Shown: piece after piece, positions 6,280 to 52,262 of the stretch | Position numbering within the stretch: position 1 is the first letter of the stretch | How the letters are laid out: every line of letters starts with the position of its first letter | Assembly (NCBI GenBank): GCA_020846195.1 | Contig: JADLEJ010000046.1 | Location: forward strand, 6,115-70,114 | Origin: Nitrospira sp. | GTDB taxonomy: Bacteria > Nitrospirota > Nitrospiria > Nitrospirales > Nitrospiraceae | Length of the DNA stretch: 64,000 nucleotides | Direction: 5' to 3' | Program-made: the position numbers and the translations under genes | The notes under the pieces: model-generated | Databases searched by the model: none | What the model saw: only the letters and a program-made list of their open reading frames with translations | What the model was told of the DNA's origin: nothing

Positions 6280-6282
6280 GAC

Positions 6283-7506
6283 ATGTTCAGATCGTTGACC
6301 GGTACGCTGCTCACTCTGCTCATCGCCGTCGCCGGCTGCCAGCAGGAATCTCCCTCACGTCCGGAACAACCGGCCGCCCAGGCGGCGAACGACAATGGGA
6401 AAACCGGCGAGGCCGGCGCCTCTATCGACATCGATCCAACCCACCCCGTCGATGTCCAGGTGACGAAACCAATCAGACAACGGCTGGTCTACACGATCAC
6501 GCTGCCCGCCAATATCTCGCCGCTCTATCAAACGACGCTCTACGCGAAAGTGTCCGGCTATCTGAAGTGGATCGGCCCGGACAAGGGCGACCGCGTGAAG
6601 AAGCATCAAGTCGTTGCGCTCATCGACGCCCCGGAAATCGAAGAGCAGTATCAGCAAGCTGCCGCCGATTACAAAATCAAGAAGATCACCTTCGAGCGGT
6701 TGGACAAAGTCCTGCGCGAATCGCCGGACGTGATCGCCAAGCAGGACGTCGATGTGGCCGAAGCGGCCTTCGACGGCGCCAAGAATCTCATGCAGCAGCG
6801 CGCCGCGATGCGCGAGTACACCAAGGTGCGCGCGCCCTATGACGGCGTCGTCACCGCCCGCTTTGCCGATCCCGGCGCGCTGATCCAGCTGGCGACCGCG
6901 TCCGCGACGAATGCCATTCCGCTCTTCACGGTCATGGATCTGGATACGGTGCGGGTCTATGCCAACGTGCCGCAGGACGAATCGGCTTGGATCGCGCCAG
7001 GCAAAACCAAGGCCGCCGTGCTCTTGAAGGAACAGCCGGACCGCTCCTTTACCGGCACGATTACCCGCTCCACACTTGCGCTCGACCCTTCCACGAGAAG
7101 CTTGCTGGTGGAACTCGATATGCCGAACCGCGACCATGCGCTCCGCCCCGGCACCTATGCGGAACTGGCGCTGGATTTGCGCGAGATTCCCGACGCCCTG
7201 GTCTTGCCCCCGCAAGCGGTGATCGGCGGGCAAAAAGGCAAATCCGTCTTCGTCATTTCGCAAGGCAAGGCCACGTCGGTCCCGGTGCAGACCGGCATCA
7301 CCAACGGCAAGTGGATAGAAATCACGAACGGGCTGGATGGCACGGAAGACGTGGCGGTGGTCGGGAAGCGGCGGCTGCTGGAAGGTTCGCCCGTGCAGGC
7401 CTCTCCGTTCAAATTGCCCGAAAGCAAACCCGCGCAACAGAAATTCGAACGGCGTTCAGCGGGCCAGCCGCCCCTGCCGGCGGCCGATGGAGGAGGAAAA
7501 CCATGA
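6283..7506 (+). CDS. RND efflux periplasmic adaptor (membrane-fusion protein, HlyD family) lipoprotein
   Basis: Lipobox LIAVAGC. Barrel-sandwich/hairpin-type sequence (VSGYLKWI ... VRAPYDGVVTAR). Lies 3 nt after the permease. Confidence 0.85.
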   Translation: MFRSLTGTLLTLLIAVAGCQQESPSRPEQPAAQAANDNGKTGEAGASIDIDPTHPVDVQVTKPIRQRLVYTITLPANISPLYQTTLYAKVSGYLKWIGPDKGDRVKKHQVVALIDAPEIEEQYQQAAADYKIKKITFERLDKVLRESPDVIAKQDVDVAEAAFDGAKNLMQQRAAMREYTKVRAPYDGVVTARFADPGALIQLATASATNAIPLFTVMDLDTVRVYANVPQDESAWIAPGKTKAAVLLKEQPDRSFTGTITRSTLALDPSTRSLLVELDMPNRDHALRPGTYAELALDLREIPDALVLPPQAVIGGQKGKSVFVISQGKATSVPVQTGITNGKWIEITNGLDGTEDVAVVGKRRLLEGSPVQASPFKLPESKPAQQKFERRSAGQPPLPAADGGGKP

Positions 7507-20037: not shown

Positions 20038-20844
20038 ATGTTACCCTCAACTTTTGTGATCCTCCAGGGGATCGGTCCCAAAACTGAACGGCGCCTTTGG
20101 CACGAGGGCCTGCTCACGTGGAACGATTTCCTGAGCCAGCCGGGGATTTCAGGAATCTCCGCCCCGCGCAAGCAGTGGTACGACCAGGAGCTCCTCCAGG
20201 CTCAATCGGCATTCGATTCAGGGCAACTCGGCTATTTCGCCGCGCGATTGCCCAGCCGCGATCATTGGCGTTTTTTCGAACTATGCGAACCCCAGGCGCT
20301 GTATCTGGACATCGAAACCACCGGCACTTCTCCGCATGACGGCGAGGTGACCGTCGTGGGACTGCACCGGCGTGGAGAAACGGTCTGCCTGGTCCGTGGA
20401 GAAACGCTGACGGTGGAACGGCTCCAGGCGGAATTGGATGCCTGCACGCTTCTCGTCACGTTTTTCGGAACGAGCTTTGATGTGCCGTACCTGCGCGCCA
20501 AATTCCCCGAACTCAGATTCTCCATGCCGCATTTCGACCTCTGCTTCGCCGCGCGGCGGCTGGGCCTGCGCGGCGGACTCAAACAGATCGAACGGGAACT
20601 GGGAATCGAACGGGATTCGGCGCTGCGCAATCTGGACGGCTGGGACGCCGTGCGGCTCTGGATGCAATGGCGCGCGGGCGATGCCGGCGCGCGGGATCTG
20701 CTCCTGGCCTACAACGCCGCCGATACGGCCAATCTGGCTCCGCTGGCGAAACATGTGTTTCAGGATAGTGCCTCGCGCTTTGGCCCAGCCTCGGCCGGCG
20801 CGTCCAGGCTGTTTCACCCAGACCGGCAGGAGCTTCACGCATGA
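20038..20844 (+). CDS. HhH + RNase H-like (YprB/PolB-exonuclease-like) nuclease
   Basis: N-terminal LQGIGPKTERRLWHEGLLTWNDF (helix-hairpin-helix). Acidic exonuclease motifs LYLDIETTG and YNAADTANL. Confidence 0.6.
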   Translation: MLPSTFVILQGIGPKTERRLWHEGLLTWNDFLSQPGISGISAPRKQWYDQELLQAQSAFDSGQLGYFAARLPSRDHWRFFELCEPQALYLDIETTGTSPHDGEVTVVGLHRRGETVCLVRGETLTVERLQAELDACTLLVTFFGTSFDVPYLRAKFPELRFSMPHFDLCFAARRLGLRGGLKQIERELGIERDSALRNLDGWDAVRLWMQWRAGDAGARDLLLAYNAADTANLAPLAKHVFQDSASRFGPASAGASRLFHPDRQELHA

Positions 20845-21590
20845 GCGCCTGGATTGGAATCGGACGAAGCGACATCGGCCTCGTCCGCGCCATGAATCAA
20901 GACGCCTTCGTCGCCATGAACCATCTGGGATTCTGGGCCGTGGCCGATGGCATGGGTGGACATGCCGGCGGAGAAGTGGCGGCTCAATCCGCCATCGCCA
21001 CCGCTGCCGCGCGAGCCGAGTCGTTCGCAGATTCGCTCCGCAACGGCTCCTGCGCGCCGCAGGATTTCCTGCGGGATATGATCGCCGAGGCGCACGAAGC
21101 CGTCCTTGAACGCGCGCGGCGGGAGCCCCGGCTGTCTCAGATGGGAACCACCCTGGTCACACTGCTGATCACCTCCGATGCCACGCCGACCGCTCACCTC
21201 GCCCATGTGGGCGACAGCCGCGGATACCTCTTTCGGAACGGCCAACTGACCCAGTCGACCCAAGATCATACGTTGATCGAAACCTATCTCGCTCGCGGAA
21301 TTGTCACTCCAGCAGAAGCCAAAACCCATCCTGAGCGACATGTATTGACGAAAGCGATCGGCATTGCCCACTCCGCCGAACATGATTATTCCGCCTGCCC
21401 GCTCCTACCGTCCGATGTCCTGCTGCTCTGCTCCGATGGGCTCACAAAGATGCTGGAGGATGCCGACCTCGCCGGCATCCTGGCACGCGCGCAAGGCGAT
21501 CCGATCCTGATCTGCGATCGCTTGATCGAAATGGCTCTCGCCCGCGGCGGCGACGATAATGTGACCGTCGTCGCAATCGCGCTCCCCTAG
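20841..21590 (+). CDS. PP2C-family Ser/Thr phosphatase
   Basis: RAMNQDAF ... VADGMGGHAGGEVA ... GGDDNVTVV. ATGA overlap with the upstream gene. Confidence 0.85.
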   Translation: MSAWIGIGRSDIGLVRAMNQDAFVAMNHLGFWAVADGMGGHAGGEVAAQSAIATAAARAESFADSLRNGSCAPQDFLRDMIAEAHEAVLERARREPRLSQMGTTLVTLLITSDATPTAHLAHVGDSRGYLFRNGQLTQSTQDHTLIETYLARGIVTPAEAKTHPERHVLTKAIGIAHSAEHDYSACPLLPSDVLLLCSDGLTKMLEDADLAGILARAQGDPILICDRLIEMALARGGDDNVTVVAIALP

Positions 21591-21712: not shown

Positions 21713-22594
21713 ATGCCCGATCTGTCTCGGATCTCTTTTTTCGTCTTATCAGGATATCTGTTGCTCGCCCCGGTCTCCGGATTCGCCGATGACAATACAG
21801 GGCCTGAAGCCGCAATCCGCGCTCTAGTGGACGCCAACGCCGCACGAGACCTCGATGGCATGTCCCGGCTGATGGCGCACGATGACGACGCCACGGGCTA
21901 TACCATCGGCGGACGGAAGTACGTCGGATGGCCGGAGCTGGAGCGGGACATTCGCGACGAATTCGCTTTTGTGGAAAAACTGGAAATGCCCATCACCGAC
22001 CTCAAGGTCTGGACGAAAGGCGACCTAGCCTGGTTCACGATGGAACTAGATTACATCCGCTTCGTCAACGAAGGCGGTGAGCGCCACCACACCGTCATCC
22101 CCTTGAGAGAAAGCGGCGTGCTTGAAAAGCGGCAGGGCCAATGGCTGTTGATCTCTTGGCATGAATCGCTCCGTGCGGCGAACTGGCCCGCAGTAGCTCA
22201 CCAGCCGCCTGCAGCACCGGCGCTCCAGCTAGTCGCCGACCCTGGAGTCTTGCGTGCCCCCATCGCAGACCTGAGCGGCGAATGGGAAATTCTGGAAGTC
22301 GAGGACGACAAGCGCTATAAGGCCACGCTGGATAAATCCGGCAATGGCCCCTATACACAGCATGGCGGACGCTTTACGACCACGAAGGTCGCCGACCGGC
22401 TCTGGCAAGGCACCTGGCAGCAACCCGGCAACGACCGCGAGGGGGCGTTCGAACTCTTGCTGTCGGAGGATGGCATGCAGGCCAAGGGTGTCTGGTGGTA
22501 TTCCCGGGTCGGCACGCACAAAAATATTCCTCCGCGTGAACATGGCGGCACCTATCAATGGAAACGGCTCACACAGCCTATCCAAGTCCAATGA
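21713..22594 (+). CDS. exported two-domain protein, SnoaL/NTF2-like N-terminal half
   Basis: Signal peptide. The N-terminal half has the NTF2-like pattern (AIRALVDANAARDLDGMSRLMAHD ... WLLISWHES). The C-terminal ~120 aa is not recognised. Confidence 0.45.
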   Translation: MPDLSRISFFVLSGYLLLAPVSGFADDNTGPEAAIRALVDANAARDLDGMSRLMAHDDDATGYTIGGRKYVGWPELERDIRDEFAFVEKLEMPITDLKVWTKGDLAWFTMELDYIRFVNEGGERHHTVIPLRESGVLEKRQGQWLLISWHESLRAANWPAVAHQPPAAPALQLVADPGVLRAPIADLSGEWEILEVEDDKRYKATLDKSGNGPYTQHGGRFTTTKVADRLWQGTWQQPGNDREGAFELLLSEDGMQAKGVWWYSRVGTHKNIPPREHGGTYQWKRLTQPIQVQ

Positions 22595-22671
22595 TCCGAA
22601 TACTACCTACACTCTCCTTCTCAAACCAATGCCCTCGCACAAAGACACTTTTACCTTCTCTGGGAGATTTT

Positions 22672-23670
22672 ATGTATTGGATGCTCGTGCTTTCTCTCAC
22701 TGCACTGATAGGCACTCCGGCATTTGCCGACGGCGGACATGACCACCATGCCGTGCCCACATTGAAAAACCAGACCACGACGACGGTCACCATTAAAGAC
22801 AACACCGTCACTCTAACCTTCGGCCCCATCGATCTCCCGACCGACCATGACGGCGACTTAGCCGCCTCGATGCCGAAGCATAACTTTCAGCTGCCCGAAG
22901 ACATGTACATGGTGGGGTATAAATCGGCGGTCTTTACCAAAGAGGGCAAGGAACTTCCCAGAAATTACCTTCACCATATCTTGATGATGAACAACACCAA
23001 GCCCAGCGTCTCCTGCCCTGGAGAGCCGCTGTTCTTCGCGGGCGCCGGCCTGGAAATGACCGAGGCCCGGTTTCCGGAAGGCTATGGCGTCAAGCTGGCC
23101 AAGGGCGATCGCCTCATGTCGGTCGTCGCCTTCTACCACAAAGCGCCAACGACGAAAAATGTGATGGCGTCTTTCACCATGTACATGGCGCCGAAGTCCA
23201 AGCCAGTGAAGGAAATGGATGTCTATCAGGTCGGCGTCAACATTGTCTGCTACAGCAAGTTCGGCGCGCGCGGCGCCGATCAGACGGACGAAGGCATTGA
23301 AATCCGCCCCGGCGTTCAGGTGCATACGGCGCCGCTGAAATTCTCGATGGACGGCTGCGTGAAATTTGCCTATCCGCACGGCCACGATGAATTGCTGATG
23401 ATTGCACTTGAGGACAAGGCGAACAAACGCACGCTCCTCCGGACGGTCCCCGATGTGGACCTGGATGGAACCTTTCGAGAGTTTCAGCCGCATCAGGTCT
23501 ACAAGGACACCCGAGGATTTTCCGTCCTGCAATCGGGCGACTACGATATGGTGATGGTCCATCATCACCCGTTGCAGAAAGCCGAGTTCCAATATGGCAT
23601 GGGAAACTATCTGCTCTATATGACTCCTGGCGCGTGCCGCACCGCCGATATCGCACGGGCGAATCCGTAA
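22672..23670 (+). CDS. exported PHM/DBH-like copper monooxygenase homologue (putative)
   Basis: ORF 22558..23670 trimmed to the Met at 22672 (signal peptide ending AFA). Ligand-like pattern: HH (LHHILMM, aa 101-102), H (FYHKAP, 156), HxH (YPHGHD, 236/238), M (YGMGNYLLYM, 310). Confidence 0.5.
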   Translation: MYWMLVLSLTALIGTPAFADGGHDHHAVPTLKNQTTTTVTIKDNTVTLTFGPIDLPTDHDGDLAASMPKHNFQLPEDMYMVGYKSAVFTKEGKELPRNYLHHILMMNNTKPSVSCPGEPLFFAGAGLEMTEARFPEGYGVKLAKGDRLMSVVAFYHKAPTTKNVMASFTMYMAPKSKPVKEMDVYQVGVNIVCYSKFGARGADQTDEGIEIRPGVQVHTAPLKFSMDGCVKFAYPHGHDELLMIALEDKANKRTLLRTVPDVDLDGTFREFQPHQVYKDTRGFSVLQSGDYDMVMVHHHPLQKAEFQYGMGNYLLYMTPGACRTADIARANP

Positions 23671-23690
23671 ACGCGTCCTCCCCTCCTCGC

Positions 23691-23729
23691 GCCCGCCGGC
23701 CTCCTCTCACTGACGAGAAACCGGCGGGC
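23691..23729 (+). terminator. 9-bp GC stem hairpin downstream of the PHM-like gene
   Basis: GCCCGCCGG (23691-23699) pairs with CCGGCGGGC (23721-23729). The loop is long and there is no U-tract, so intrinsic-terminator status is uncertain. Confidence 0.3.
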
Positions 23730-24003
23730 ACAATCTCTTCGCATCCATACACTCGTCCAAAATTGTTCGTACGGAACAGTGCGCCCTCTTCCCCCTACGA
23801 AAGAATCTCGCACTTACGTCGATTGGGACTGTGAGTGAGATACCTCGATATGGTATTCAAGACGGTAAACCGGCTCGGGATGCCGATTTGACGCCTCTTC
23901 CGCCAAGAGGCCAAGACCGCCGTCATCGCACGCACAGGATGTTGTACGCGTACCCCTTTGGGATTGAGCCGACTCGGCGCTCCCAGTAACACGGAAGTAG
24001 TCC

Positions 24004-27000
24004 ATGCCGCAGAGTGAGCCGATTACCATCCTCGTCGTCAATGAGCAAGCCGACGAAATCAAGCTGGTGACGCTGAGCCTCCGCGGCTTCTTTCCCGATT
24101 GCCGAGTTGAGTCGGTGTATTCTTCCGAAGAAGCGCTTCGGTGGGTGAATCACGCTGAATGGGACCTGATCCTGGTCGATGAGCGGCTCGGGCTCCAGAG
24201 CCGCCCGTCGCTGGTTGCTACCCTCAGGGAACGTCTTCCGACTACCGCTATCGTGCTTCAGACCGACCGGAGCGATTCGACCGCCGCCGTGACGGCACTG
24301 CAAGCTGGCGCCGACTTTCTTCTTTTCAAAAAATCGCCCGCATTTCTGACCGAATTGGTGCTCTACACCAAAGGCGCCATCGAACAACGCCGTCTCCGCG
24401 CCATGTTCGCGCGCACGCACGACCGGCAGACGCATCTGCTGGAAACACTCACGGATGTGCTCTATGAAGTCGATGCCGAAGGGCGGTTTGTCTTTATTAG
24501 TCCAGGCATCACCGTCCTGCTGGGCTATCAGCCTGAAGAACTGACCGGCACTCCCTTTTCCAAGCTGATTCCTCCCGATCAACAAGCGCGCGCGCAATAT
24601 CGTATCAATGACCGCCGGACAGGCCCTCGGGCAGCACGCCGAGTCTTGCTAGAATTGCTCAAGAAGCCTCAGCCCACAGACTCCGACCAGACTCGTGCAC
24701 AGACGGAAGTCAGCGCCAAGGGACTCTACGACGCGCGCCGACGCTACACCGGCACTCTCGGGCTCATCCGAGACATAACCGGACACCTCGCGCAGGCCGA
24801 GACCATTCAGCGGCTTGAAACCAGACTGCTCGAATCGGACCGCCATCACGCGATTGCACAGCGCTTGATCAACCTGTCGCATGAGTTGCACAAGCCCCTC
24901 TCCGCCGTATTGACCCAGTCCCAGCGGCTGATGGAAACGATCCGCGACGCCCAGCTCGATACCCGCATTGACGCCCTCACGGCGCATGCACGGGAGGCTT
25001 CGGCCTGCGGGGACGCGCTGGCTCAGGCCGTCGTCGATGCCGGCCTCGCCGAAGACGCACTAAGTCAAGTCATCGCCGACGCCCTGGCGCCCATCGCGCA
25101 TCTCGGCATTGTGCAGCACCACAATACGACGGGCCTCTTGGAGGTTGGCAATGCACGAAATATCTGGGTGCGCATCATTCAGATTGTGGTCATCCAGGCG
25201 ATTCGCCAGATGGCTGCCCGCCATACAATTCACCGGCTGAACATCTTCGCGCAAGCCGTTACGGCCACCGGAGCCCCGATCGAACAAACGCCTGGCCTCT
25301 TTCCCAATCCGGCACCTCAAGAAGTCGAAATTCTGATTCAGGAAACCGAATCGGTGGCGGCCCTCACAGTCGATTCACTACCGGCCGCCCCGGATCTAAT
25401 CCAGGCCTATGAAGACATCGGCCAGCTGCAGGGCCGCATGGAGTGGCTCGCCCCGGCGAGGCAGCCGCTCTCAGTCCGCCTGTGGCTGCCGATTCCTGAA
25501 ATGCCTCAGCCCGCTGAAACACCGGCAGAAGCCCCGCCAAGTCCGCCTGAATCATCCGTGCCGGCAACGAGCGATACTCGTCTGGACATCGATCTGTCTC
25601 CCCCTTCTGACAAACCGCTCCCGGATCGGAGACTAGCCGCGCGCGCCGCAGTCCACCTTCCGGCGCGAGTGACCGTCGGCCCTTCGGTACGCGAGGGAAC
25701 CGTTCATACGTTGAGCCTGACCGGAGCCACCGTCTCCCTGGCGGGACCGCTCCCGAATCTATCGGAGCAATCGGCTTATTTGGTATTCAAGACCGTCGTA
25801 GGGATTCTGGAGCTTCACGCCACCGTCCACGAACGTGGCATGCAGACCGACCCTTCCGCTGACGCAAGAAACCGCCCGGTCCTCGCCTTCGAATTTTCTC
25901 CGCCCGGCGAAACCGAGCAAAAAGTTCTCGGCTCCTTTATCGAAGCTGCCCAAGAGCGGAGCTTGGAGATCAGCCTTGAGGCGTTACTGTCACAGCCGGA
26001 CGAGGCCGCGCGTCCAGATCAAACCGGTTCTGGCCACCGGGTAACCGACCACCGGGAAGGCATCAGAGTCAGAGTCGCGCTTCCGGTGCGGATTGAACAG
26101 TCTCCCGAGCAGAACCCTGCGGCTCGACAACTTGGACTGGCGGTGAATTTTTCACGCGGAGGGGCATGCCTGCAGGCTAAAACCCTTCCCGGCCAGGTGG
26201 GCGAAACGATCCTCTTGCATTTCCCTCAGGGCAACGGGCAGACGCATTCGCAGCCTCACGAACCGGCCGCGCCGGATGCCGTCCTCTCGGCGAAAATCGT
26301 GTGGGCCGCTCCGGATACCACCGTCCCCTCGGAGCTGCGTCCGGCCCGCACTGAACCGGGGCAACGCTTCGGCGTCCAGTTCAGCAACCTCCCGGCCTTC
26401 GCCGAACGCGAGGTGAATCGCGTCGTGGCCCAACATATCGGCTCATCCATCGATTTGGATGGCATCGCCGGCCGCGCAGCCATTGTCAGCGCCCGGCGAG
26501 AATGCCGGAACGCGCGCGGCCAAGTCATCGCAATCACCGACGATCACGCGCGCCACCAGATCTCCCCCAGTACGCCCATTGTGATTCTCTCGCCCGGCTT
26601 CGGCTGCACCCAGACCGACTACGTCGCGCTGTCGGAATTCCTGGCCCTCAATCGGCTCCGCGTCCTGCGCTACGATTACAGCAACCACATTGGCCAAAGC
26701 GATGGCGATGTTCTTCAGACCACACTGCGGAGCATGCAAGCCGATCTGCACACGGTCCTCGAGTTTGCGCAGACAACATGGCCCACGGCCTCGCTCGCCA
26801 TCCTGGCCGAAGATGTCGCGGCCCGAGTCGCGCTGAAAGTCGTCGCACAGCAACCTGCCGCGCATCTGCTTCTGCTGGCCAACCCGGTGCTCGATATTCA
26901 GACCGCCCTGTCGGCCGGGCATCATCACGACCTCCTGGCCGACTATCGGCACGGCCTCAGACGCGGCAGCGGGAATGTATGGGGCCTCAATATCAACCTC

Positions 27001-28158
27001 GATCAGTTCTTGAGCGATATTATCGCCGGCCACTACGACACGCTGGCCACGACGGTGGCCGATCTGTCCGCGCTGACCGTCCCGATGGTCATCCTCAACT
27101 CTCCGCCAACGGACCCCTCGATGCGGTATCCCTTTCCCAGTCCGGACGAATCGCTTCGAGCGTTGCCGGCAATGCCAACCACCGTCTCGATCCCCAGCAC
27201 GTTATCGGTGACAGGCCGCGCCTTCGACGCCCGCTTCGTCGCATCGTTCCACACCCTGTTTACAGAGATTGCTCGCGTGTGCACCTTGGGAGACTCCGCA
27301 CCGGCCATGCACACCCCGACCAGTCACGATATTTCCAAACAATATCTCCTGGAACGTGAGCGCATTCGTATTCGCCACCATGTCTCGCAGTCGACCCGTG
27401 ACGCCTTGTGGATCGCGCATCTCGCCCAGCTTCCGCAGCTGGGCACCCTGCATCACCATGTGCGGCTGCTTCAAGACCTGTATCAACAGGCCCTTCCGCT
27501 TGAGCCTGGCATGCGCATACTGGATATCGGATGCGGCGAAGGAGAGTTCGCGCAAACCCTCGCCGTCAATCGCATGTACCACCGGCTCCACGCGTCGCAT
27601 GTACCGCAACGCCCCCTGCACTATCTTGGAATCGACCGCTCTGAGGAAACGGTGTCGGCAGCGGAACAGGCCTTCACAGCGCTGCATCAAGAGTTGCAAT
27701 CGATGTTTCCCGTAGCCGCTGCTCCGGCACCCGCGGTAACGGCCGAATGGGGTACCCGCCTCCCGGTCGCGCATGCTTCTGCCGACCGGATCGTCAGCCA
27801 TCTCGCGCTATCCTTCACGGCCTCTCCGCTCACCTTTCTGCGACAGGCCATCACAACACTCGCGCAAGATGGGCATCTCATCGTGACATGCGTGCAGCCG
27901 CACACAGATCTTGCCGGACTTTATCGTGAACAGCTGCATCGCGCCGGACAGGATGAGCTGTCTCCGGCGGCTCAAATTTTCCTCCACTACCTGGGGCGGC
28001 TGCATGAAGCTATTCGCCATGGACTGCTGCACTCGTTTGACCGGGAACAACTGTCCGGTCTCTTGACTCATGCCGGAGCAATCCCTCTTCGAATCGTGCC
28101 TGTCCTCGATGGGCAACTCCTTCTCGCCACAGCCAGAAAGGGGAAATCCGCTGGCTGA
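24004..28158 (+). CDS. 1384-aa multidomain signalling protein: REC-PAS-HisKA-degenerate HATPase-PilZ-PilZ-LuxD-like alpha/beta fold-SAM methyltransferase
   Basis: REC: LILVDE, IVLQTD, LLFKK. PAS: DVLYEVDAEGRFVFISPG. H-box: LSHELHKPLSAV. PilZ motifs: RRLAAR/TLSLTG and HREGIR/NFSRGG. LuxD-like: ILSPGFG...RVLRYDYSNHIGQSDG...LAILAEDVAARVALKV. MTase motif I: ILDIGCGEGEF. Confidence 0.8.
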   Translation: MPQSEPITILVVNEQADEIKLVTLSLRGFFPDCRVESVYSSEEALRWVNHAEWDLILVDERLGLQSRPSLVATLRERLPTTAIVLQTDRSDSTAAVTALQAGADFLLFKKSPAFLTELVLYTKGAIEQRRLRAMFARTHDRQTHLLETLTDVLYEVDAEGRFVFISPGITVLLGYQPEELTGTPFSKLIPPDQQARAQYRINDRRTGPRAARRVLLELLKKPQPTDSDQTRAQTEVSAKGLYDARRRYTGTLGLIRDITGHLAQAETIQRLETRLLESDRHHAIAQRLINLSHELHKPLSAVLTQSQRLMETIRDAQLDTRIDALTAHAREASACGDALAQAVVDAGLAEDALSQVIADALAPIAHLGIVQHHNTTGLLEVGNARNIWVRIIQIVVIQAIRQMAARHTIHRLNIFAQAVTATGAPIEQTPGLFPNPAPQEVEILIQETESVAALTVDSLPAAPDLIQAYEDIGQLQGRMEWLAPARQPLSVRLWLPIPEMPQPAETPAEAPPSPPESSVPATSDTRLDIDLSPPSDKPLPDRRLAARAAVHLPARVTVGPSVREGTVHTLSLTGATVSLAGPLPNLSEQSAYLVFKTVVGILELHATVHERGMQTDPSADARNRPVLAFEFSPPGETEQKVLGSFIEAAQERSLEISLEALLSQPDEAARPDQTGSGHRVTDHREGIRVRVALPVRIEQSPEQNPAARQLGLAVNFSRGGACLQAKTLPGQVGETILLHFPQGNGQTHSQPHEPAAPDAVLSAKIVWAAPDTTVPSELRPARTEPGQRFGVQFSNLPAFAEREVNRVVAQHIGSSIDLDGIAGRAAIVSARRECRNARGQVIAITDDHARHQISPSTPIVILSPGFGCTQTDYVALSEFLALNRLRVLRYDYSNHIGQSDGDVLQTTLRSMQADLHTVLEFAQTTWPTASLAILAEDVAARVALKVVAQQPAAHLLLLANPVLDIQTALSAGHHHDLLADYRHGLRRGSGNVWGLNINLDQFLSDIIAGHYDTLATTVADLSALTVPMVILNSPPTDPSMRYPFPSPDESLRALPAMPTTVSIPSTLSVTGRAFDARFVASFHTLFTEIARVCTLGDSAPAMHTPTSHDISKQYLLERERIRIRHHVSQSTRDALWIAHLAQLPQLGTLHHHVRLLQDLYQQALPLEPGMRILDIGCGEGEFAQTLAVNRMYHRLHASHVPQRPLHYLGIDRSEETVSAAEQAFTALHQELQSMFPVAAAPAPAVTAEWGTRLPVAHASADRIVSHLALSFTASPLTFLRQAITTLAQDGHLIVTCVQPHTDLAGLYREQLHRAGQDELSPAAQIFLHYLGRLHEAIRHGLLHSFDREQLSGLLTHAGAIPLRIVPVLDGQLLLATARKGKSAG

Positions 28159-28270
28159 AACGGCCATCGGTGTGTATACTCGCCCCTGCTACGAAATATC
28201 CTCTTCGTCTCCGAATCCCCCAGCCACGCGCCTGGGAAAAGAGGAAGCACGACCACCTCGCTGGATAGAT

Positions 28271-29533
28271 ATGACTACCTCCCCCTCTCACCAGGCCGCC
28301 GACTCATCTATCGTGCTCACCCCTCTCCAGCGGCTGACCCGGTTTGCCCAAGATATGGGAACGCTCACCGACCGCGCCGTCATTGCCGAACGCATTCTCA
28401 TTGAACTCTGCGACGCCACAGACTCTCAACAGGGCGCGCTGTACCTGCTGGATCGCGAACATGACCAATATGACTGCGTGATGACCGTCGGCAGTCAGAA
28501 TACATCGACGGCCATCGCCTCTTTTGCTTCAACCCACACGCTTATTCAATCGCTCGTCCACGAGCATTCTATGCTCTTGGCCACGGAAAACCCGCCGATC
28601 AAGCCGGAATTAACCGATGTCTTACGGACAACCCACTCGTCGCAGGCTGTTGCGCTGCTCAATAAAGGCCGATTGATCGCCTTTGCGCTACTCGCCCCCG
28701 GCTTGGGCCGGCCGCTCGATCATGCGGACGGACGGGACTTCCTCCTCGCTCTGGCCCAAAGCGGGGCCAACGCCTTGGATTCCATCCTGATGAATGACGA
28801 TCTCCACCAGTCTCAAACGCTTATGCGCCGCACCGACCGGCTGCGCTCCTTGGAAACGATCGCCGGCGGGTTTGCCCACGAAATCAGGAACCCACTCACG
28901 TCGATCAAAACGTTTATCCAGCTGGCCCCGGAACGAAAGGACGACGCGGAGTTTATCTACGACTTTAGCCGCATTGTCCTGGACGATGTGCATCGGATCG
29001 AACGGCTGATTCAGGAAATCCTGGACTACGCTCGTTACATGGAACCGAAGCTGACGGATGAGGATCTCAATGAGATCGTTACCTCCTGCCTCTATTTCAT
29101 CGAAGTAAAGGCGGACAGCAAGCGGATCAAGATTGAAAAAGAGTTGGCGCCCGGGCTTCCTCGTGTCATGTTAGATCGTCAACAAATAAAGCAGGTGCTC
29201 TTGAACCTCCTGTTGAACGCGATCGATGCCATGGGAGATGGCGGCGGACAGCTGAAGGTGCGAACGCACCGGCTCGTAAAACCTGGGGCGGCCGCGTGGA
29301 CGCAGATTGAGATTGAAGATAACGGTCCGGGCATTTCCAAAGCGAACCTGGAGCATATTTTCGATCCGTTCTTCACCACAAAACACACCAGCGGCGAGCA
29401 TGCGGGAACGGGCTTGGGGTTGACGATTGTGCATCAGATTATTCAAGAGCATCGTGGCGAAATTCAGGTCGAGAGCACCGAGGGAGTGGGAACCACGTTT
29501 TCCGTGAATCTTCCGGCCCTCCCGATAGACTAG
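28271..29533 (+). CDS. cytoplasmic sensor histidine kinase (GAF-like sensor, HisKA, HATPase_c)
   Basis: ORF 28070..29533 trimmed to ATG 28271. H-box FAHEIRNPLTSI, N-box LLNLLLNAIDAM, G1 EDNGPGI, G2 GTGLGL. Confidence 0.85.
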   Translation: MTTSPSHQAADSSIVLTPLQRLTRFAQDMGTLTDRAVIAERILIELCDATDSQQGALYLLDREHDQYDCVMTVGSQNTSTAIASFASTHTLIQSLVHEHSMLLATENPPIKPELTDVLRTTHSSQAVALLNKGRLIAFALLAPGLGRPLDHADGRDFLLALAQSGANALDSILMNDDLHQSQTLMRRTDRLRSLETIAGGFAHEIRNPLTSIKTFIQLAPERKDDAEFIYDFSRIVLDDVHRIERLIQEILDYARYMEPKLTDEDLNEIVTSCLYFIEVKADSKRIKIEKELAPGLPRVMLDRQQIKQVLLNLLLNAIDAMGDGGGQLKVRTHRLVKPGAAAWTQIEIEDNGPGISKANLEHIFDPFFTTKHTSGEHAGTGLGLTIVHQIIQEHRGEIQVESTEGVGTTFSVNLPALPID

Positions 29534-29540
29534 GAGTACT

Positions 29541-30971
29541 GTGGAAAGTCCAGCTATGAAAAAACGCGTTCTCTTGATCGACGACGAAGCCCGTGTCCGG
29601 ACTTCACTGAAGATGGTGCTCGAGCCCAACTACGAAATCCTGCAAGCGGCGGATGCTCAAGAGGGGCTCGATACATTTAGAAAAGAAGGGCCCGATCTGG
29701 TCCTGCTCGATGTTATTCTCCCAGGAACGGATGGACTGGCCGTGCTGGAAACCCTGCGCTCAGAAAGCCGGATGACTCCGGTGATCATGCTCACAGGCAC
29801 GAAGTCGGTTAAGACGGCCGTCGACGCAATGAAACTGGGCGCCGCCGACTATTTATCCAAACCCTTCGACGTCGAAGAATTGCGCATTGTCGTAGACCGG
29901 GCGCTCAGCTCGCAGGCGCTCGAACGCGAAGTGAAACAACTCAGGGCGCAAGTCGTCCAGCGCTATGCCTTCCACAACCTCATTGGCAAGAGCCAGGGGA
30001 TGCAGGAAATCTACGCGAAGATCGAACAAGTCGCGGATAGCCGAACCACCGTGCTGATTACCGGCGAAAGCGGAACCGGAAAAGAGCTCGTTGCCAAAGC
30101 CCTCCATTACAACAGCGGCCGGCGCGAACGCCCCTTTATCGCGCTGAATTGCGCGGCCCTCCCGGAAACGCTGATTGAAAGCGAGCTCTTCGGTCACGAA
30201 AAAGGCTCCTTTACCGATGCCACGGCCAGGCGGGTCGGCCAGTTCGAACTCGCCAACACCGGCACCTTGTTCTTAGACGAAATCGGCGATCTCAGCGCCA
30301 TGACACAGGCCAAACTTCTCCGAGTCCTCCAGGAGCGGGAGTTTACGAGAATCGGTGGCGTTCAATCGATTAAGGTCGATGTCAGAATTGTTGCCGCCAC
30401 TAACAGAAATCTCGAAGACATGGTGCGCAAAGGACAATTCCGTGAAGATCTGTACTACCGCATCAATGTGATTTCGCTGTTTCTTCCTCCGCTCCGTGAA
30501 CGTGGCGAAGATATTCCCCTGCTAGCCAAGCATTTCCTAGCCAAGCGAATCGAGGAAGAGAAGCGCCCGCATATCGAGTTTGGGAAAGAAGCGCTGGAAG
30601 TACTGACTCGCTACCCCTGGCCGGGCAACGTCCGGGAAATGGAAAATATCATCGAGCAGGCCTTTATCTGGTCGCAGAATTGCGCTCAGATCACCCAAGA
30701 ACATCTGCCGACTATTCTGAAAAGCGACTCGCGATCATCCTCGCTCCGCGACGACACGCTTGCCGGCCGTATGTCCCTTGAAAAAGCCGTCATGGAATTC
30801 GAGCGAGAAATTATTCTCGACGCATTAAAGCGAACGAACTATGTCCAGACCCATGCGGCCAATCTCTTAGGAATCAGCCGGCGCATGCTGAAATACCGTA
30901 TGGATACCTTGGGAATTGGCCGACCGGACAATGGAAGCAGTCAAGAGCCAGAGCCGCCGGTGCAGGAATAA
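29541..30971 (+). CDS. sigma-54-dependent response regulator (NtrC/AtoC type: REC-AAA+-Fis HTH)
   Basis: VLLIDDE...LVLLDVILPG. Walker A GESGTGKE. GAFTGA-variant EKGSFTDA. C-terminal HTH AANLLGISRRMLKYRM. Confidence 0.9.
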   Translation: MESPAMKKRVLLIDDEARVRTSLKMVLEPNYEILQAADAQEGLDTFRKEGPDLVLLDVILPGTDGLAVLETLRSESRMTPVIMLTGTKSVKTAVDAMKLGAADYLSKPFDVEELRIVVDRALSSQALEREVKQLRAQVVQRYAFHNLIGKSQGMQEIYAKIEQVADSRTTVLITGESGTGKELVAKALHYNSGRRERPFIALNCAALPETLIESELFGHEKGSFTDATARRVGQFELANTGTLFLDEIGDLSAMTQAKLLRVLQEREFTRIGGVQSIKVDVRIVAATNRNLEDMVRKGQFREDLYYRINVISLFLPPLRERGEDIPLLAKHFLAKRIEEEKRPHIEFGKEALEVLTRYPWPGNVREMENIIEQAFIWSQNCAQITQEHLPTILKSDSRSSSLRDDTLAGRMSLEKAVMEFEREIILDALKRTNYVQTHAANLLGISRRMLKYRMDTLGIGRPDNGSSQEPEPPVQE

Positions 30972-31033
30972 CACACTCCATGTAGCAACCGCGTCATTTT
31001 CAGCACAATCGTTACGCCCTTCCATCCCACCTC

Positions 31034-31083
31034 CTACGTAGTCGAACGTTCAAGTAATCTACATATAGATTTTCTACGTAGTC
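31034..31083 (+). promoter_or_regulatory. two identical CTACGTAGTC decamers 40 bp apart (candidate activator-binding sites)
   Basis: CTACGTAGTC at 31034-31043 and 31074-31083. A third variant, TTACGTAGTT, is at 31147-31156. Each contains the TACGTA palindrome. The pair lies about 45-90 bp upstream of the -24/-12 element. Confidence 0.35.
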
Positions 31084-31123
31084 TCCCCACTGCGGATTGA
31101 TCGCCCCAAGTAAGTGCCTGAAA

Positions 31124-31139
31124 AGGAATAAGTATTGCT
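31124..31139 (+). promoter_or_regulatory. candidate sigma-54 (-24/-12) promoter
   Basis: AGGAATAAGTATTGCT: GG (31125-31126) then 10 nt then GC (31137-31138), with TTGCT at -12. Lies 26 nt upstream of ATG 31165, and a sigma-54 activator is encoded immediately upstream. Confidence 0.45.
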
Positions 31140-31164
31140 TGACAGGTTACGTAGTTGGGGGTAC

Positions 31165-32319
31165 ATGAGCATTATGAGCACAACACTTTCTCAAAATGGA
31201 TCCAAAGTAAAGCCAACGATTCTTGTTGTCGATGACGAGGCCGGTCCGCGTGACGCACTGAAAGTCATCTTGCGGCCCTTCTTCAACATCCGCTCAGCCG
31301 ATAACGCGCAGGCCGCCCTCGACGTCTTGAGCCATGAATCCGTCGATCTCATTACACTAGACCAGAAACTCCCCGATCGCCAAGGCATCGACCTCCTGCA
31401 AGATATTAAGCACGACCACGCCGACATCGAAGTGATTATCATCACCGGGTATGGAAGCCTGAAGTCCGCCATGGAAGGCATTCGACATGGGGCGGCCGGC
31501 TATTTGCTCAAGCCATTTAATGTGACAGAACTGATTTCTCTCATCAGCCAAACCCTTGAGAAGAAGCAGCGCTTGGATCTCCTCAGAAAGACCCTGACCG
31601 ACTCGCCTGCCTTATGGGCCGGCGATGAGGAGGGACGGCGTGCGTGGGAAACTCTGAAGACCAGCTATTTTGCGATTGGAACACGCGAGGAGCAGGACAG
31701 CTTGTCAGGATCGCCGGATCTTCTTCCACTGCTCTCAGACCTTATGGAAGCCAAAGACCGGCAATTGCTGAGTCATTGCAGCCGCGTCAGCTTCTACGCC
31801 ACGTTGCTCGCCAATCGCCTCAGTCTGACGCTCGCAGAGCAGAAGTCTTTGGCTATCGGAGCCTTCCTGCACGACATCGGAAAAGTCAGCCTCCCCAATT
31901 ATCATTTTTGGGATGAGCCGATCCTCCCGTCTGGAGAAAGCGCCCTTTCCAAAGAGCATTGCGAGACAGGCGCACGGATGATCCTCCCCCTGGGATATCC
32001 AGCCGAGGTCGGCCAGGTCATTTCCTCTCATCATGAACGGTGGGACGGATCGGGCTATCCTCATGGACTTCAGGGAGAAGGGATTCCCTTGCTAGCCAGG
32101 ATTGTCAGCATTGCCCAACTGTTCGATCACCTGACAGCGGAAGCCCCAGGACGGTCGCCGCTCTCTGTCGATCAAGCCATTCAGCAAATCGCCCTTCACG
32201 CCAACACCTATTTCGATCCTATGCTGGTAGATCAATTTGCCAGGGTTGCGACCGAATGCAAGGCCTCGCTTTCCGCAATGGCCATTGCGACGACGCCGAA
32301 CGGCGTCTCCAGCCTGTAG
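31165..32319 (+). CDS. response regulator with HD-GYP domain (c-di-GMP phosphodiesterase, RpfG-like)
   Basis: ORF 31135..32319 trimmed to ATG 31165 (GGGGG RBS). REC: ILVVDDE, LITLDQKLPD. HD-GYP: FLHDIGK and HHERWDGSGYP. Confidence 0.85.
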   Translation: MSIMSTTLSQNGSKVKPTILVVDDEAGPRDALKVILRPFFNIRSADNAQAALDVLSHESVDLITLDQKLPDRQGIDLLQDIKHDHADIEVIIITGYGSLKSAMEGIRHGAAGYLLKPFNVTELISLISQTLEKKQRLDLLRKTLTDSPALWAGDEEGRRAWETLKTSYFAIGTREEQDSLSGSPDLLPLLSDLMEAKDRQLLSHCSRVSFYATLLANRLSLTLAEQKSLAIGAFLHDIGKVSLPNYHFWDEPILPSGESALSKEHCETGARMILPLGYPAEVGQVISSHHERWDGSGYPHGLQGEGIPLLARIVSIAQLFDHLTAEAPGRSPLSVDQAIQQIALHANTYFDPMLVDQFARVATECKASLSAMAIATTPNGVSSL

Positions 32320-32340
32320 AGAACACGCTGGCCGGGTACG

Positions 32341-34020
32341 TCACTCCCCTGCATCGGCAATCAGTTCTGCCGCCGTTTCACGGACTTTCTTCGTCACCGT
32401 CAGCCCGCCTAACATTCTAGCGATTTCGTTCTCACGGCCCTGCCCCATCAGCGGACGCACCGCCGTCACAGTTCGATGCCCTTCCTGCGACTTCTCGACA
32501 CAAAGGTGATGCTGCCCCTGCGCGGCGACTTGAGGCAAATGGGTGATACAGAATACCTGATGATAGCGGCCTAACCCACGAAGGCGCTTGCCGATTGCGG
32601 CAGCAACCGCTCCTCCTACACCGGTATCGATCTCGTCGAAAATCAACACCGGAACTCGATCTCGTTCTGCCAGCACCGTTTTCAGCGCGAGCATCACTCT
32701 GGACAACTCCCCGCCTGAGGCAACTTTTGAGAGAGGCTTCGCGGGCTCCCCCGCGTTCGTCGAAAGACGAAACTCCACCTGATCGATCCCGTCGGGACCA
32801 AACTCCGATTCGGCGGCATCGGCGGTCACATGGATCTCAAAGACCGTCTGCCCCATTTTCAGCGCCTCAAGCTCCTGGCGCACGACTTTAACCATGCGCT
32901 TGGCCGCCTCACCGCGCTTCAGGAACAATTGCCGCGCCAACAGCACCAGACTGGCCTCCTGCTCATGAATGCCTTGATGCAGCTTAGCCAGCTGTCCATC
33001 GAAGTCTTGCAACTGCTCTAACTCATCTTTGATCTTCCGATGAGCATCCAGCACGCCTGCCAGCGACCCACCGAATTTCTTTTTTAGTTTCTGGATGACC
33101 GCCAGCCGATCCTCGATCAACCCCAGCCGCGCGGGGTCGGCTTCGACTCGCTCCGCGTAGTCGCGCAGCTGCCCTGCCATCTCCTTCAGCACTACTTTCG
33201 CCTCAACAGTCAGGCGGGTCAGCTCTCCAACCGTGGAATCAATCTGAAGCAGTTGGCCCACGGCACGCTCGGTCAATGCCAGCTGCGCCAGAATACCCTG
33301 CCCTTCCGCATTCACTCGCTCCAGCGCCTCAGCCGCCAATGCGCCGATCTGCTGCGAGGAACTGAGCCGGCGACGCTCATTGTGCAGCGCATCATCCTCT
33401 CCCTCGCACAACATCGCCTCATCCAATTCAGCGCATTGGAAGCGCAGCAACTCCTCCCGCTGCGCTCGATTCTGGGATTCACGAATCAATCGATCGCGCG
33501 CCTCGCAGGCCGCCTTCCAATCCTCATACCCTTGCCGATAGGCGGCACAGCGCTCCTGAAGATTGCCGAAGGCATCCACGACCGCGCGCTGTGTCGCCGA
33601 GGCTAAGAGCGATTGCTGATCGTGCTGCCCGTGAAGATCGACGAGCGTGCCACCGAGCTCTTCCAAGACATGCAGCGAGCTCATCATTCCGTTCAAATAG
33701 ACTCGATTACGCCCGGATCGGGCAATCACCCGCCGCACAATCAGCTCTGAATCTGCGGCGCCCAGAATTCCTTGATCGCGGAGACGGGCTTGGAGCGGAT
33801 GGCGATCGGGCAGGTGAAAGGCTGCCTCAAGCGAGGCTTCCTCTGTCCCAAAACGAATCTGGTCGGCGGACGCTCGTCCGCCGACCAGCAGGGCAATGGC
33901 ATCAATGAGAAGAGATTTTCCGGCTCCCGTTTCTCCGGTGAGAACGGTAAAGCCGGGCTCAAACCGCAGGCTGAGCTCTTCCAGAATGGCGAAATTGACG
34001 ATGCGCAGCTCGGTGAGCAT
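32341..34020 (-). CDS. recN: DNA repair protein RecN
   Basis: MLTELRIVNFAILEEL...LTGETGAGKS Walker A. Long coiled coil. C-terminal SGGELSRVMLAL and LIFDEIDTGVGG. Confidence 0.95.
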   Translation of the reverse strand: MLTELRIVNFAILEELSLRFEPGFTVLTGETGAGKSLLIDAIALLVGGRASADQIRFGTEEASLEAAFHLPDRHPLQARLRDQGILGAADSELIVRRVIARSGRNRVYLNGMMSSLHVLEELGGTLVDLHGQHDQQSLLASATQRAVVDAFGNLQERCAAYRQGYEDWKAACEARDRLIRESQNRAQREELLRFQCAELDEAMLCEGEDDALHNERRRLSSSQQIGALAAEALERVNAEGQGILAQLALTERAVGQLLQIDSTVGELTRLTVEAKVVLKEMAGQLRDYAERVEADPARLGLIEDRLAVIQKLKKKFGGSLAGVLDAHRKIKDELEQLQDFDGQLAKLHQGIHEQEASLVLLARQLFLKRGEAAKRMVKVVRQELEALKMGQTVFEIHVTADAAESEFGPDGIDQVEFRLSTNAGEPAKPLSKVASGGELSRVMLALKTVLAERDRVPVLIFDEIDTGVGGAVAAAIGKRLRGLGRYHQVFCITHLPQVAAQGQHHLCVEKSQEGHRTVTAVRPLMGQGRENEIARMLGGLTVTKKVRETAAELIADAGE

Positions 34021-52250: not shown

Positions 52251-52262
52251 ATCGAGGCGCCT

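Follow-up and report, generated by a model that had tools for sequence, protein, structure and literature searches.

Four consecutive genes on the forward strand of a 64-kb stretch of Nitrospira DNA, here called the window and analysed over its whole length, were labelled G1 to G4 and encode, in this order, a giant protein with two PilZ domains, a GAF histidine kinase, an NtrC-type activator and a REC-HD-GYP protein, the latter a predicted phosphodiesterase of cyclic dimeric guanosine monophosphate (c-di-GMP). We think it reasonably probable that G2, G3 and G4 make up a conserved sigma-54 signalling module and that G1 is a separately promoted neighbour. This reading stands on gene and domain content, motif integrity, conservation of the promoter and the presence of the same layout in a second phylum, and on these grounds the arm that would lead from the kinase through the activator and a sigma-54 promoter to the HD-GYP gene appears well supported. 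An earlier reading of the same DNA (the original prediction) had described the four genes in this same-strand order with gaps of 112, 7 and 193 bp, which was borne out by the open reading frames (ORFs) and their coordinates, and had wired all four into one feedback circuit, a claim that is taken up below.

Promoter and upstream elements between G3 and G4

Both the -24/-12-like site and the repeated decamers that had been described in the 193-bp gap between G3 and G4 are there (Table 1). The core of the site, GGAATAAGTATTGCT at 31125-31139, has the GG-N10-GC spacing, with both dinucleotides of a -24/-12 promoter. As GG-N8-TTGCT is found in the window at chance frequency (9 occurrences against 8.9 expected), the promoter call rests on conservation. 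From 80 Nitrospira species genomes, 66 G3-G4 gaps were obtained and aligned with the window copy (n=67). An exact GG-N8-TTGC[A/T] was present in 62 of the 67, with the GG, the AA that follows it and the TTGCT invariant in those 62, and the remaining five gaps differ at one or two -12 positions. The end of the promoter usually lies 23-28 nt from the start of G4 (18-61 nt overall). With respect to the consensus TGGCAC-N5-TTGCW, the -12 TTGCT is a full match, and the -24 consensus of the genus is (A/T)GGAAY. Promoter and terminator scans detected neither a sigma-70 match nor a terminator in the gap. Because this non-coding conservation is locked in position while RecN is just 54-92% identical within the genus, we judge the site to be a probably functional promoter, and the position-locked conservation is the main evidence for it.

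Several elements precede the promoter, and their positions were tallied in 64 relatives. The most distant one, the dyad-like CGCGTCATTTTCAGCACA, resembles CGTTCAATTTTGAAG at the equivalent place in loci of Thermodesulfobacteriota described in the next section, and may be an activator binding site. Its comparison with the published AtoC site, GCkATrCrrnnATTTrCwCA, showed likeness just at the TTTGCACA end, so that a match was rejected and this stays a lead only. Closer to the promoter, the -90 element was found as CTAYRTATDG in 62 of the 64 relatives, and TACGTA at -114 in 33, at -74 in 20 and at about -1 in 29 of them. The -90 element is A/T-rich and has CAwATAGTT in common with the Thermodesulfobacteriota loci, where it fits 12 of 13 positions of the IHF consensus; it may therefore be a DNA-bending site. 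All copies of TACGTAGT in the 64-kb window, three in number, fall within this gap (0.21 copies expected by chance), and the third copy may be an operator or part of a short leader.

The G2-G4 proteins and related loci

G2 was matched to HisKA (PF00512) and HATPase_c (PF02518) in Pfam and NCBIfam, with a GAF domain at about residues 31-175, and its matches in the Protein Data Bank (PDB) were ZraS and other kinases. Its kinase boxes are intact (FAHEIRNPL, the N box, DNGPG and GTGLGL), as expected of a histidine kinase, and a hydrophobicity scan detected no membrane-span-like stretch in any of the four proteins. The earlier label, a cytoplasmic GAF histidine kinase, is thus right as to a soluble kinase, but the GAF domain of the window copy itself is sub-threshold (E 0.046, with a match spanning the whole model). 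The GAF label holds because the domain passes in 9 of 16 orthologues (best E 1.7e-11), and relatives are named 'GAF domain-containing' in their sources. Two identities were rejected for G2: AtoS, given an NCBIfam score of 237 against a cut-off of 646, and the PEP-CTERM kinase PrsK, with TIGR02916 at 114 against 300 and no multi-span N-terminus in G2.

In G3, Pfam recognised a receiver (PF00072, E 3.4e-28), a Sigma54_activat domain (PF00158, E 1.7e-74, covering positions 1-167 of the 168 in the model), AAA_lid_14 and the HTH_8 domain (PF02954, E 1.7e-12), and the receiver residues DD, D, T and K are all present in the translation. The sigma-54 contact loop, classically GAFTGA, reads GSFTDA in 60 of 67 copies (the window and 66 relatives) and GAFTDA in the other 7, so that F and T are kept. 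Both substitutions occur singly in functional activators, A2 to S in LevR and G5 to D in Campylobacter FlgR (Francke et al., PMC3162934), and by this analogy the loop, which as GSFTDA pairs the two, is considered probably compatible with sigma-54 activation. The best NCBIfam matches of G3 were AtoC, NtrC and PEP_resp_reg, all of them under their cut-offs, and its identification as AtoC (522 against 714) or as PrsR (TIGR02915, 442 against 502.6) was rejected.

G4 is predicted from its motifs to be an HD-GYP c-di-GMP phosphodiesterase: it was matched to HD_5 (PF13487, E 7e-34), has intact HDIGK and HHERWDGSGYP motifs and carries a canonical receiver. Domain by domain, conservation was measured as the mean identity of relatives to the window copy. 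It amounts to 0.89 for the DHp and 0.37 for the GAF domain of G2, 0.98 for the HTH and 0.87 for the receiver of G3, and 0.83 for the receiver and 0.71 for the HD-GYP domain of G4. The DHp and the two receivers are thus among the most constrained parts, the GAF and HD-GYP domains being freer, and the near-complete conservation of the G3 HTH fits that of the cis elements in the gap. Moreover, the receivers of G3 and G4 are 39% identical without gaps. Together, the DHp and receiver conservation and this identity fit a single kinase serving both G3 and G4, for which the case is circumstantial.

The order G1-G2-G3-G4 is kept in 65 of the 67 genomes with enough DNA. Conservation of the block, which the original prediction had put forward as a check, is hence real but uninformative: the whole neighbourhood is collinear, flanking genes included, so genus synteny does not single out these four genes. 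Synteny was rejected as specific evidence, and evidence was therefore looked for outside the genus.

This search began from distant relatives of G4 and led to a group of low-G+C contigs (L089-L091), later joined by L161-L164. L089-L091 encode an activator that shares 54-61% identity with G3, and downstream of its gene come a perfect TGGCAAA(C/G)TT(C/T)TTGCT and, next, a REC-HD_5 gene. The activators of both groups have a G3-like NCBIfam profile, are of Thermodesulfobacteriota origin and are about 80% alike to G3 in the HTH. In the long contigs the gene order is FabF, a 7TM-GAF-HisKA-HATPase kinase, an AAA+-HisKA protein, the activator, the sigma-54 promoter, the REC-HD-GYP gene and a 258-aa gene, and the flanking genes are unrelated to those of Nitrospira. 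Two of the contigs (L089 and L090) are short and stop before a complete kinase gene, and L161 holds kinase and HD-GYP as fragments only. These clusters share with G2-G4 a GAF kinase, a G3-like activator, a REC-HD_5 gene, a sigma-54 promoter in the gap before it and the placing of all genes on the same strand, and differ in their 7TM kinase, the extra AAA+-HisKA gene, the canonical TGGCA-N6-TTGCT and the lack of a G1. Such a recurrence, together with the genus-wide conservation of the promoter position, upholds the earlier proposal of a kinase and an activator whose genes precede an HD-GYP gene with a sigma-54 promoter. No other comparison speaks as strongly as the recurrence for kinase, activator, promoter and HD-GYP gene being a functional unit, and by it G1 would stand outside the core of the module.

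The additional AAA+-HisKA gene encodes a 515-aa protein (L161-L163, at about 5376-6991; L091, 3166-4713) of unusual make-up, in which an AAA+ domain of the sigma-54-activator type is joined to a HisKA-like part without receiver or HTH.

Within the Nitrospira loci, three natural deletions were found. In N. moscoviensis NSP M-1 (L076, CP011801, 9929-15040), a 1703-aa ORF is an in-frame fusion of G1 to G3 at about residue 177, with LLIRPVFG running directly into GTGKELVAKAL; G2, the G3 receiver and about the first 30 AAA+ residues are lost. No such deletion is seen in four lineage II relatives: G2 and a full-length G3 are present in L015, L018 and L065, and the short contig of L012 ends inside G2. 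In the metagenome-assembled genome RSF8 (L035, 16729-16773), the match to G3 ends at 394 and that to G4 begins at 269, the two overlapping. About 1.25 kb are missing there: the G3 HTH, the gap with the promoter, and G4 as far as residue 268, receiver included; this could be a real deletion or an assembly error. Finally, a Nitrospira-like metagenome contig (L082, Ga0187893_10002609, 3758-4050) is without G1 and has G2-G4 and the sigma-54 promoter intact. Between its 370-aa gene and G2 there are just the last 16 nt of the G1 coding sequence (AAATCCGCTGGCTGAA) and GTGTATACT, an element of the G1-G2 gap. Because these deletions remove G1, G2-G3 or G3-G4 separately, the four-gene block is not obligatory.

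Table 1. Features of the G1-G4 locus in window coordinates; domain limits are given as residues, and roles of non-coding elements are predictions.
Feature	Position	Strand	Description
Terminator-like hairpin	23691-23729	+	G+C-rich; just past the stop of the 370-aa gene; read from the sequence
Conserved elements 5' of G1	23755-23860	+	CGTCCAAAATTGTTCG, CCCCTACGAAAGAA and TG(T/G)G..TATGGTATTCAA; alignment of 74 loci
G1	24004-28158	+	1384-aa ORF
G1 domains, first part			Atypical REC 9-125; PAS 140-262; degenerate DHp and CA-like kinase core 263-510
G1 domains, second part			PilZ1 539-665; PilZ2 681-812; LuxD-like alpha/beta-hydrolase fold 831-1040; class I methyltransferase fold ~1150-1384
G1 tandem PilZ	25618-26439	+	PilZ1 RRxxxR (R542, R543, R547); PilZ2 RxxxR (R684, R688) and N715-x-S717-x-x-G720
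GTGTATACT	28172-28180	+	G1-G2 gap, ~13 nt past the G1 stop; alignment of 74 loci
G2	28271-29533	+	420 aa; ATG at 28271 fits orthologues, the ORF itself being open from 28070
G3	29541-30971	+	476 aa; GTG start
G3 domains			REC 9-125; AAA+ 147-400 with the GSFTDA loop at residue 222; HTH_8 419-460
CGCGTCATTTTCAGCACA	30990-31007	+	Dyad-like TGCGTS-N5-7-CAC, ~160 nt 5' of the promoter
Repeated palindromic elements	31034-31083	+	CTACGTAGTC 31034-31043 (~-114); CTACATATAG 31059-31068 (~-90); CTACGTAGTC 31074-31083 (~-74)
Sigma-54-type promoter AAAAGGAATAAGTATTGCTTG	31121-31141	+	GG 31125-31126; TTGCT 31135-31139
Third TACGTAGT	31148-31155	+	Overlaps the expected transcription start
G4	31165-32319	+	384 aa; ATG at 31165
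G4 domains			REC 18-135; HD-GYP 189-355

G1 and the non-coding DNA around it

More than 120 full-length orthologue clusters of G1 were found at 39-85% identity, and all those named in their source belong to Nitrospira or Nitrospiraceae (closest named match, N. lenta, 84%); by these matches G1 is a Nitrospira-only protein. Pfam recognised in it a REC domain (9-111), a PAS domain (144-259), two PilZ domains, an Acyl_transf_2/Hydrolase_4 region (848-1032) and a methyltransferase (1151-1358). The combination in one chain of REC, PAS, a kinase-like core, a PilZ pair, a LuxD-like domain and a methyltransferase was found only in Nitrospira, and no description of it was found in the literature searched. 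Its motifs were tallied in 119 orthologues. The earlier summary of G1 as a REC-PAS-HisKA*-PilZ2-enzyme protein stands for the PilZ pair, which is intact, but its HisKA* part turned out weak and degenerate, and its 'enzyme' resolves into LuxD-like and methyltransferase folds.

The receiver of G1 keeps D59 in 111 of the 119 orthologues, T or S in 116 and K or R in 117. In its acidic pocket, the first acidic position is always N or S and the second is E or D in 92 of 119. With the receiver of G3 it is 26% identical, over part of the length. The following HisKA-like match in Pfam is weak (E 0.0076), and there is no HATPase_c match. Structure prediction for residues 258-825 (pLDDT 70) gave a long hairpin of helices and an alpha/beta domain, then a two-domain PilZ unit; the Foldseek match of this model to kinase cores is weak (E ~1e-3). 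The candidate phosphorylated histidine, His293, is present in the window copy and kept in just 15 of the 119 orthologues, and ATP-binding boxes were found in none of the 119 in the CA-like part. On account of both, this region is taken as a degenerate kinase core that falls short of a histidine kinase.

The PilZ pair has the motifs of c-di-GMP receptors. RRxxxR in PilZ1 and RxxxR in PilZ2 are each present in 119 of 119 orthologues, and in the second motif of PilZ2 N or D at 715 and G720 are likewise kept in all 119, with S717 in 113. The second motif of PilZ1 is [N/D/T]LSxxG, TLSLTG in the window copy. Foldseek matched the fold of the pair to MotI, PlzD, MrkH and YcgR (E 2e-7 to 1e-4; 5vx6, 2rde, 5y6f), and the two-domain receptors YcgR, MotI/DgrA and PlzD likewise have RxxxR and [D/N]xSxxG with a similar predicted fold. 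Hence, the tandem PilZ probably binds c-di-GMP.

In the model of the C-terminal half (pLDDT 76), a LuxD-like alpha/beta hydrolase precedes a class I methyltransferase. LuxD (1THT) was the best match of the hydrolase region both in sequence (E 6.7e-14) and in fold (E 2e-15, target-normalised TM 0.76), and the motif RYD..NH.G.S.G is common to both. Ser114 of LuxD aligns with Asp937 of G1, an Asp kept in 118 of the 119 orthologues, after which no conserved His or acid was found among them. An outright identification of the domain as LuxD was rejected, given the Asp in place of the catalytic Ser and an NCBIfam score of 56.6 against a cut-off of 420. Because of the change from Ser to Asp937 and the absence of a conserved His in the orthologues, the C-terminus appears to be either a non-canonical enzyme or a pseudo-enzyme, and the enzymatic C-terminus under PilZ control that had been proposed for G1 is not sustained. 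For the methyltransferase region, the match to Methyltransf_23 (E 2.6e-12), an ILDIGCGEG motif I, in which the two glycines counted are conserved in 109 and 112 of 119 orthologues, and Foldseek matches to methyltransferases agree with a class I SAM fold. PilZ-enzyme fusions are known in BcsA and Alg44, and the PilZ pair of G1 is also fused to enzyme-like domains, as in BcsA. In this respect G1 adds to the PilZ-fused effectors a new variant whose enzyme-like half is unexplained.

On its 5' side, G1 is preceded by a hairpin whose paired arms are also visible in the alignment of relatives, and which looks like a terminator insulating G1 from upstream transcription. Between this hairpin and the leader, an alignment of 74 loci revealed conserved elements that probably are the promoter and operator region of G1 itself. 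Among them, the 10-mer CAAAATTGTT (window 23758-23767) is present once in each of 28 Nitrospira loci, at about 240 nt from G1 on its 5' side. The same 10-mer occurs in the Thermodesulfobacteriota loci (L089, 244-253; L090, 2311-2320; L163, 8410-8419; L164, 2633-2642), where it lies directly past the stop codon of the activator and 5' of the sigma-54 promoter; it may be an activator site common to the DNA upstream of G1 and to these loci. On the other side of G1, the last eight bases of GTGTATACT are identical in at least 95% of 74 aligned G1-G2 gaps. This element includes the palindrome GTATAC and the -10-like hexamer TATACT, and is a candidate -10 element or operator of a separate G2-G3 transcript. 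The hairpin and own promoter region of G1, along with GTGTATACT in the G1-G2 gap, suggest that the locus consists of three transcription units.

Two further observations concern this DNA. The leader of G1, of about 140 nt (23861-24003), has a conserved CTGGG...CCCAG pairing just 5' of the ribosome-binding site; a search of 23400-32600 against Rfam gave no match at E <= 1, and the conserved leader is therefore not a known riboswitch. The protein encoded directly 5' of G1 (370 aa, 22558-23670) is without Pfam or NCBIfam match and 67-89% identical across Nitrospira, and its gene overlaps the end of a SnoaL-like gene, so that the two are probably co-transcribed.

The other window ORFs that were scanned are mainly housekeeping genes, plus one Ser/Thr kinase and two PP2C phosphatases; no further c-di-GMP gene and no rpoN was among them. 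At 50850-53048 the Ser/Thr protein kinase gene precedes one PP2C gene; the other is found at 20841-21590, on the 5' side of the locus, and these genes add to the signalling capacity of the window. Nitrospira carries one rpoN, and a Nitrospira rpoN has been cloned (PMC8553950).

Proposed mechanism, alternatives and known systems

In the mechanism that we propose, G2 would sense a cytoplasmic ligand through its GAF domain and phosphorylate G3. The latter would then oligomerise on the upstream elements of the gap and remodel the sigma-54 holoenzyme at 31125-31139, and opening of the promoter would drive expression of G4. As the G4 receiver would probably be phosphorylated by the same kinase, more phosphodiesterase would be made and it would also be switched on, in a coherent feed-forward, upon which c-di-GMP would fall. 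G1 could plausibly read this c-di-GMP signal and would not be an obligatory part of the module.

Several observations weigh against this proposal. For about 18 kb the gene order is the same in all Nitrospira, with the RNase H-like, PP2C, SnoaL-like, 370-aa, RecN, LptD and Mur ligase genes also in place. The -24 element of the window, AGGAAT, fits TGGCAC at just 3 of 6 positions, and TACGTA over the expected start would suit a repressor better than an activator. N. moscoviensis keeps promoter and G4 without G2 or a working G3. Outside the genus, the HD-GYP proteins of the Thermodesulfobacteriota clusters are 35-36% identical to G4, so that their orthology is unclear. The closest G4 homologues off the Nitrospira locus (L081, L083 and L084, 51-54% identical) do not show the layout: no activator gene was found 5' of them within the contig DNA covered in L081 and L083, nor in about 1 kb of upstream DNA in L084, and the region 5' of the L081 and L083 genes has no sigma-54 promoter and reads sigma-70-like. 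Finally, G3 is 84-99% identical across the genus (median 87%) and the most conserved gene of the neighbourhood, in which the other medians are 59-74% (G2 61%, G4 67%, RecN 60%, LptD 71%). So large a difference hints at duties of G3 beyond a single gene.

We first consider the closed four-gene circuit of the original prediction, in which G1 would read the c-di-GMP level set by G4, and its receiver and kinase-like core would exchange phosphate or contacts with G2-G4, giving feedback. The two parts do adjoin each other in 65 of 67 genomes, the PilZ motifs of G1 are intact, its kinase-like core could dock receivers, and CAAAATTGTT stands 5' of G1 as well as beside the sigma-54 promoter in Thermodesulfobacteriota, whose activator HTH is so alike to that of G3. 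However, what ties G1 to the other genes is adjacency within a collinear region. It has its own terminator-like hairpin and promoter region, and G2-G3 have a conserved element of their own; no G1 was found outside Nitrospira, where a module of the G2-G4 type is nonetheless found, and the L082 contig has lost G1 and retained G2-G4 with their promoter. The scarcity of its histidine, the lack of ATP motifs, the N or S always found at the first acidic receiver position and the low identity to the G3 receiver also speak against the circuit. As to the loop, nothing was found that closes one. We therefore regard a closed circuit as unlikely.

A second alternative is a branched system, in which G2 would phosphorylate G3 and G4 in parallel, the main targets of G3 would lie elsewhere, and G4 would be controlled mostly after translation, its promoter being minor, shared or possibly served by another activator. 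The exceptional conservation of G3 and the G4 promoter retained in N. moscoviensis without a working G3 agree with it, as does a Desulfovibrio vulgaris operon whose activator has a distant mapped target (PMC3333781). Against this, promoter and upstream elements stand directly after the G3-type gene in two phyla, an order typical of activators with a local target (atoSC-atoDAEB is an example), and neither a further promoter of this type nor TACGTAGT is found elsewhere in the 64-kb window. On balance, a branched system seems improbable to us.

A more far-reaching reading of G1 takes it as a c-di-GMP-gated Nitrospira effector, integrated with G2-G4 in one phosphorelay and c-di-GMP circuit. The PilZ pair would be a switch between a receiver-docking pseudo-kinase and a LuxD-like acyl domain with an Asp nucleophile plus the methyltransferase; G1 would synthesise or alter a fatty-acyl compound, perhaps a signalling fatty-acid methyl ester or a lipid of the envelope; and the activity would be set by G4, with G1 transcription possibly under G3 through CAAAATTGTT. 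Taken as a whole, this is quite improbable. That the genes are not coupled at all, being neighbours through genus-wide collinearity with non-coding elements that serve unrelated regulators, is very improbable: flanking genes are equally conserved in order and the three natural deletions remove parts separately, but G2 and G3 are 7 bp apart, the activator that any sigma-54 promoter requires is encoded right next to this one on the 5' side, and the layout is found in Thermodesulfobacteriota amid entirely different flanks.

The G2-G3-G4 module that we favour has partial parallels in known systems. In RpfC-RpfG of Xanthomonas, a REC-HD-GYP regulator is encoded beside its kinase, and phosphorylation activates degradation of c-di-GMP, which is read by PilZ and other effectors. 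The kinase in this case, RpfC, is of the hybrid type, sits in the membrane and has DSF as its signal, and RpfC-RpfG has no sigma-54 activator or transcriptional arm. The pair G2/G4 resembles it in the REC-HD-GYP regulator encoded beside a kinase, and G2-G4 would add a sigma-54 arm. The Escherichia coli AtoS-AtoC-atoDAEB system similarly has a kinase, an NtrC-family activator and a sigma-54 promoter with its target on one strand; AtoS and AtoC are the best NCBIfam matches of G2 and G3, below equivalog cut-offs, and AtoC binds a palindrome upstream of its promoter (PMC3118216). The Nitrospira module differs in its soluble GAF sensor, in a REC-HD-GYP target instead of fatty-acid catabolism and in the GSFTDA loop of G3. 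The operon of D. vulgaris Hildenborough combines a kinase (DVU2931), a REC-HD-GYP protein (DVU2933) and a sigma-54 activator (DVU2934), for which its authors proposed a c-di-GMP link and mapped lpxC as the target of DVU2934 (PMC3333781); the loop of this activator is GAFTGA (PMC4641369). By its published description, the HD-GYP gene there precedes the activator, and the target is lpxC and not the HD-GYP gene. The three-gene module thus puts known two-component/sigma-54 designs, in a new variant, to use in the degradation of c-di-GMP, and the papers searched on c-di-GMP, HD-GYP or sigma-54 in Nitrospira do not describe the locus.

Members of Nitrospira are the main nitrite oxidisers, some of them complete ammonia oxidisers, and inhabit soils, waters and wastewater plants in the form of flocs and biofilms. 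No description of how this lifestyle is controlled was found in the papers searched, and the locus offers a genus-wide and experimentally tractable entry to it, with a cytoplasmic GAF sensor, a probable sigma-54 switch, a predicted c-di-GMP phosphodiesterase and a neighbouring giant PilZ protein. Moreover, recurrence of the kinase-activator-promoter-HD-GYP layout in Thermodesulfobacteriota suggests that sigma-54 control of c-di-GMP degradation may be widespread and so far undescribed.

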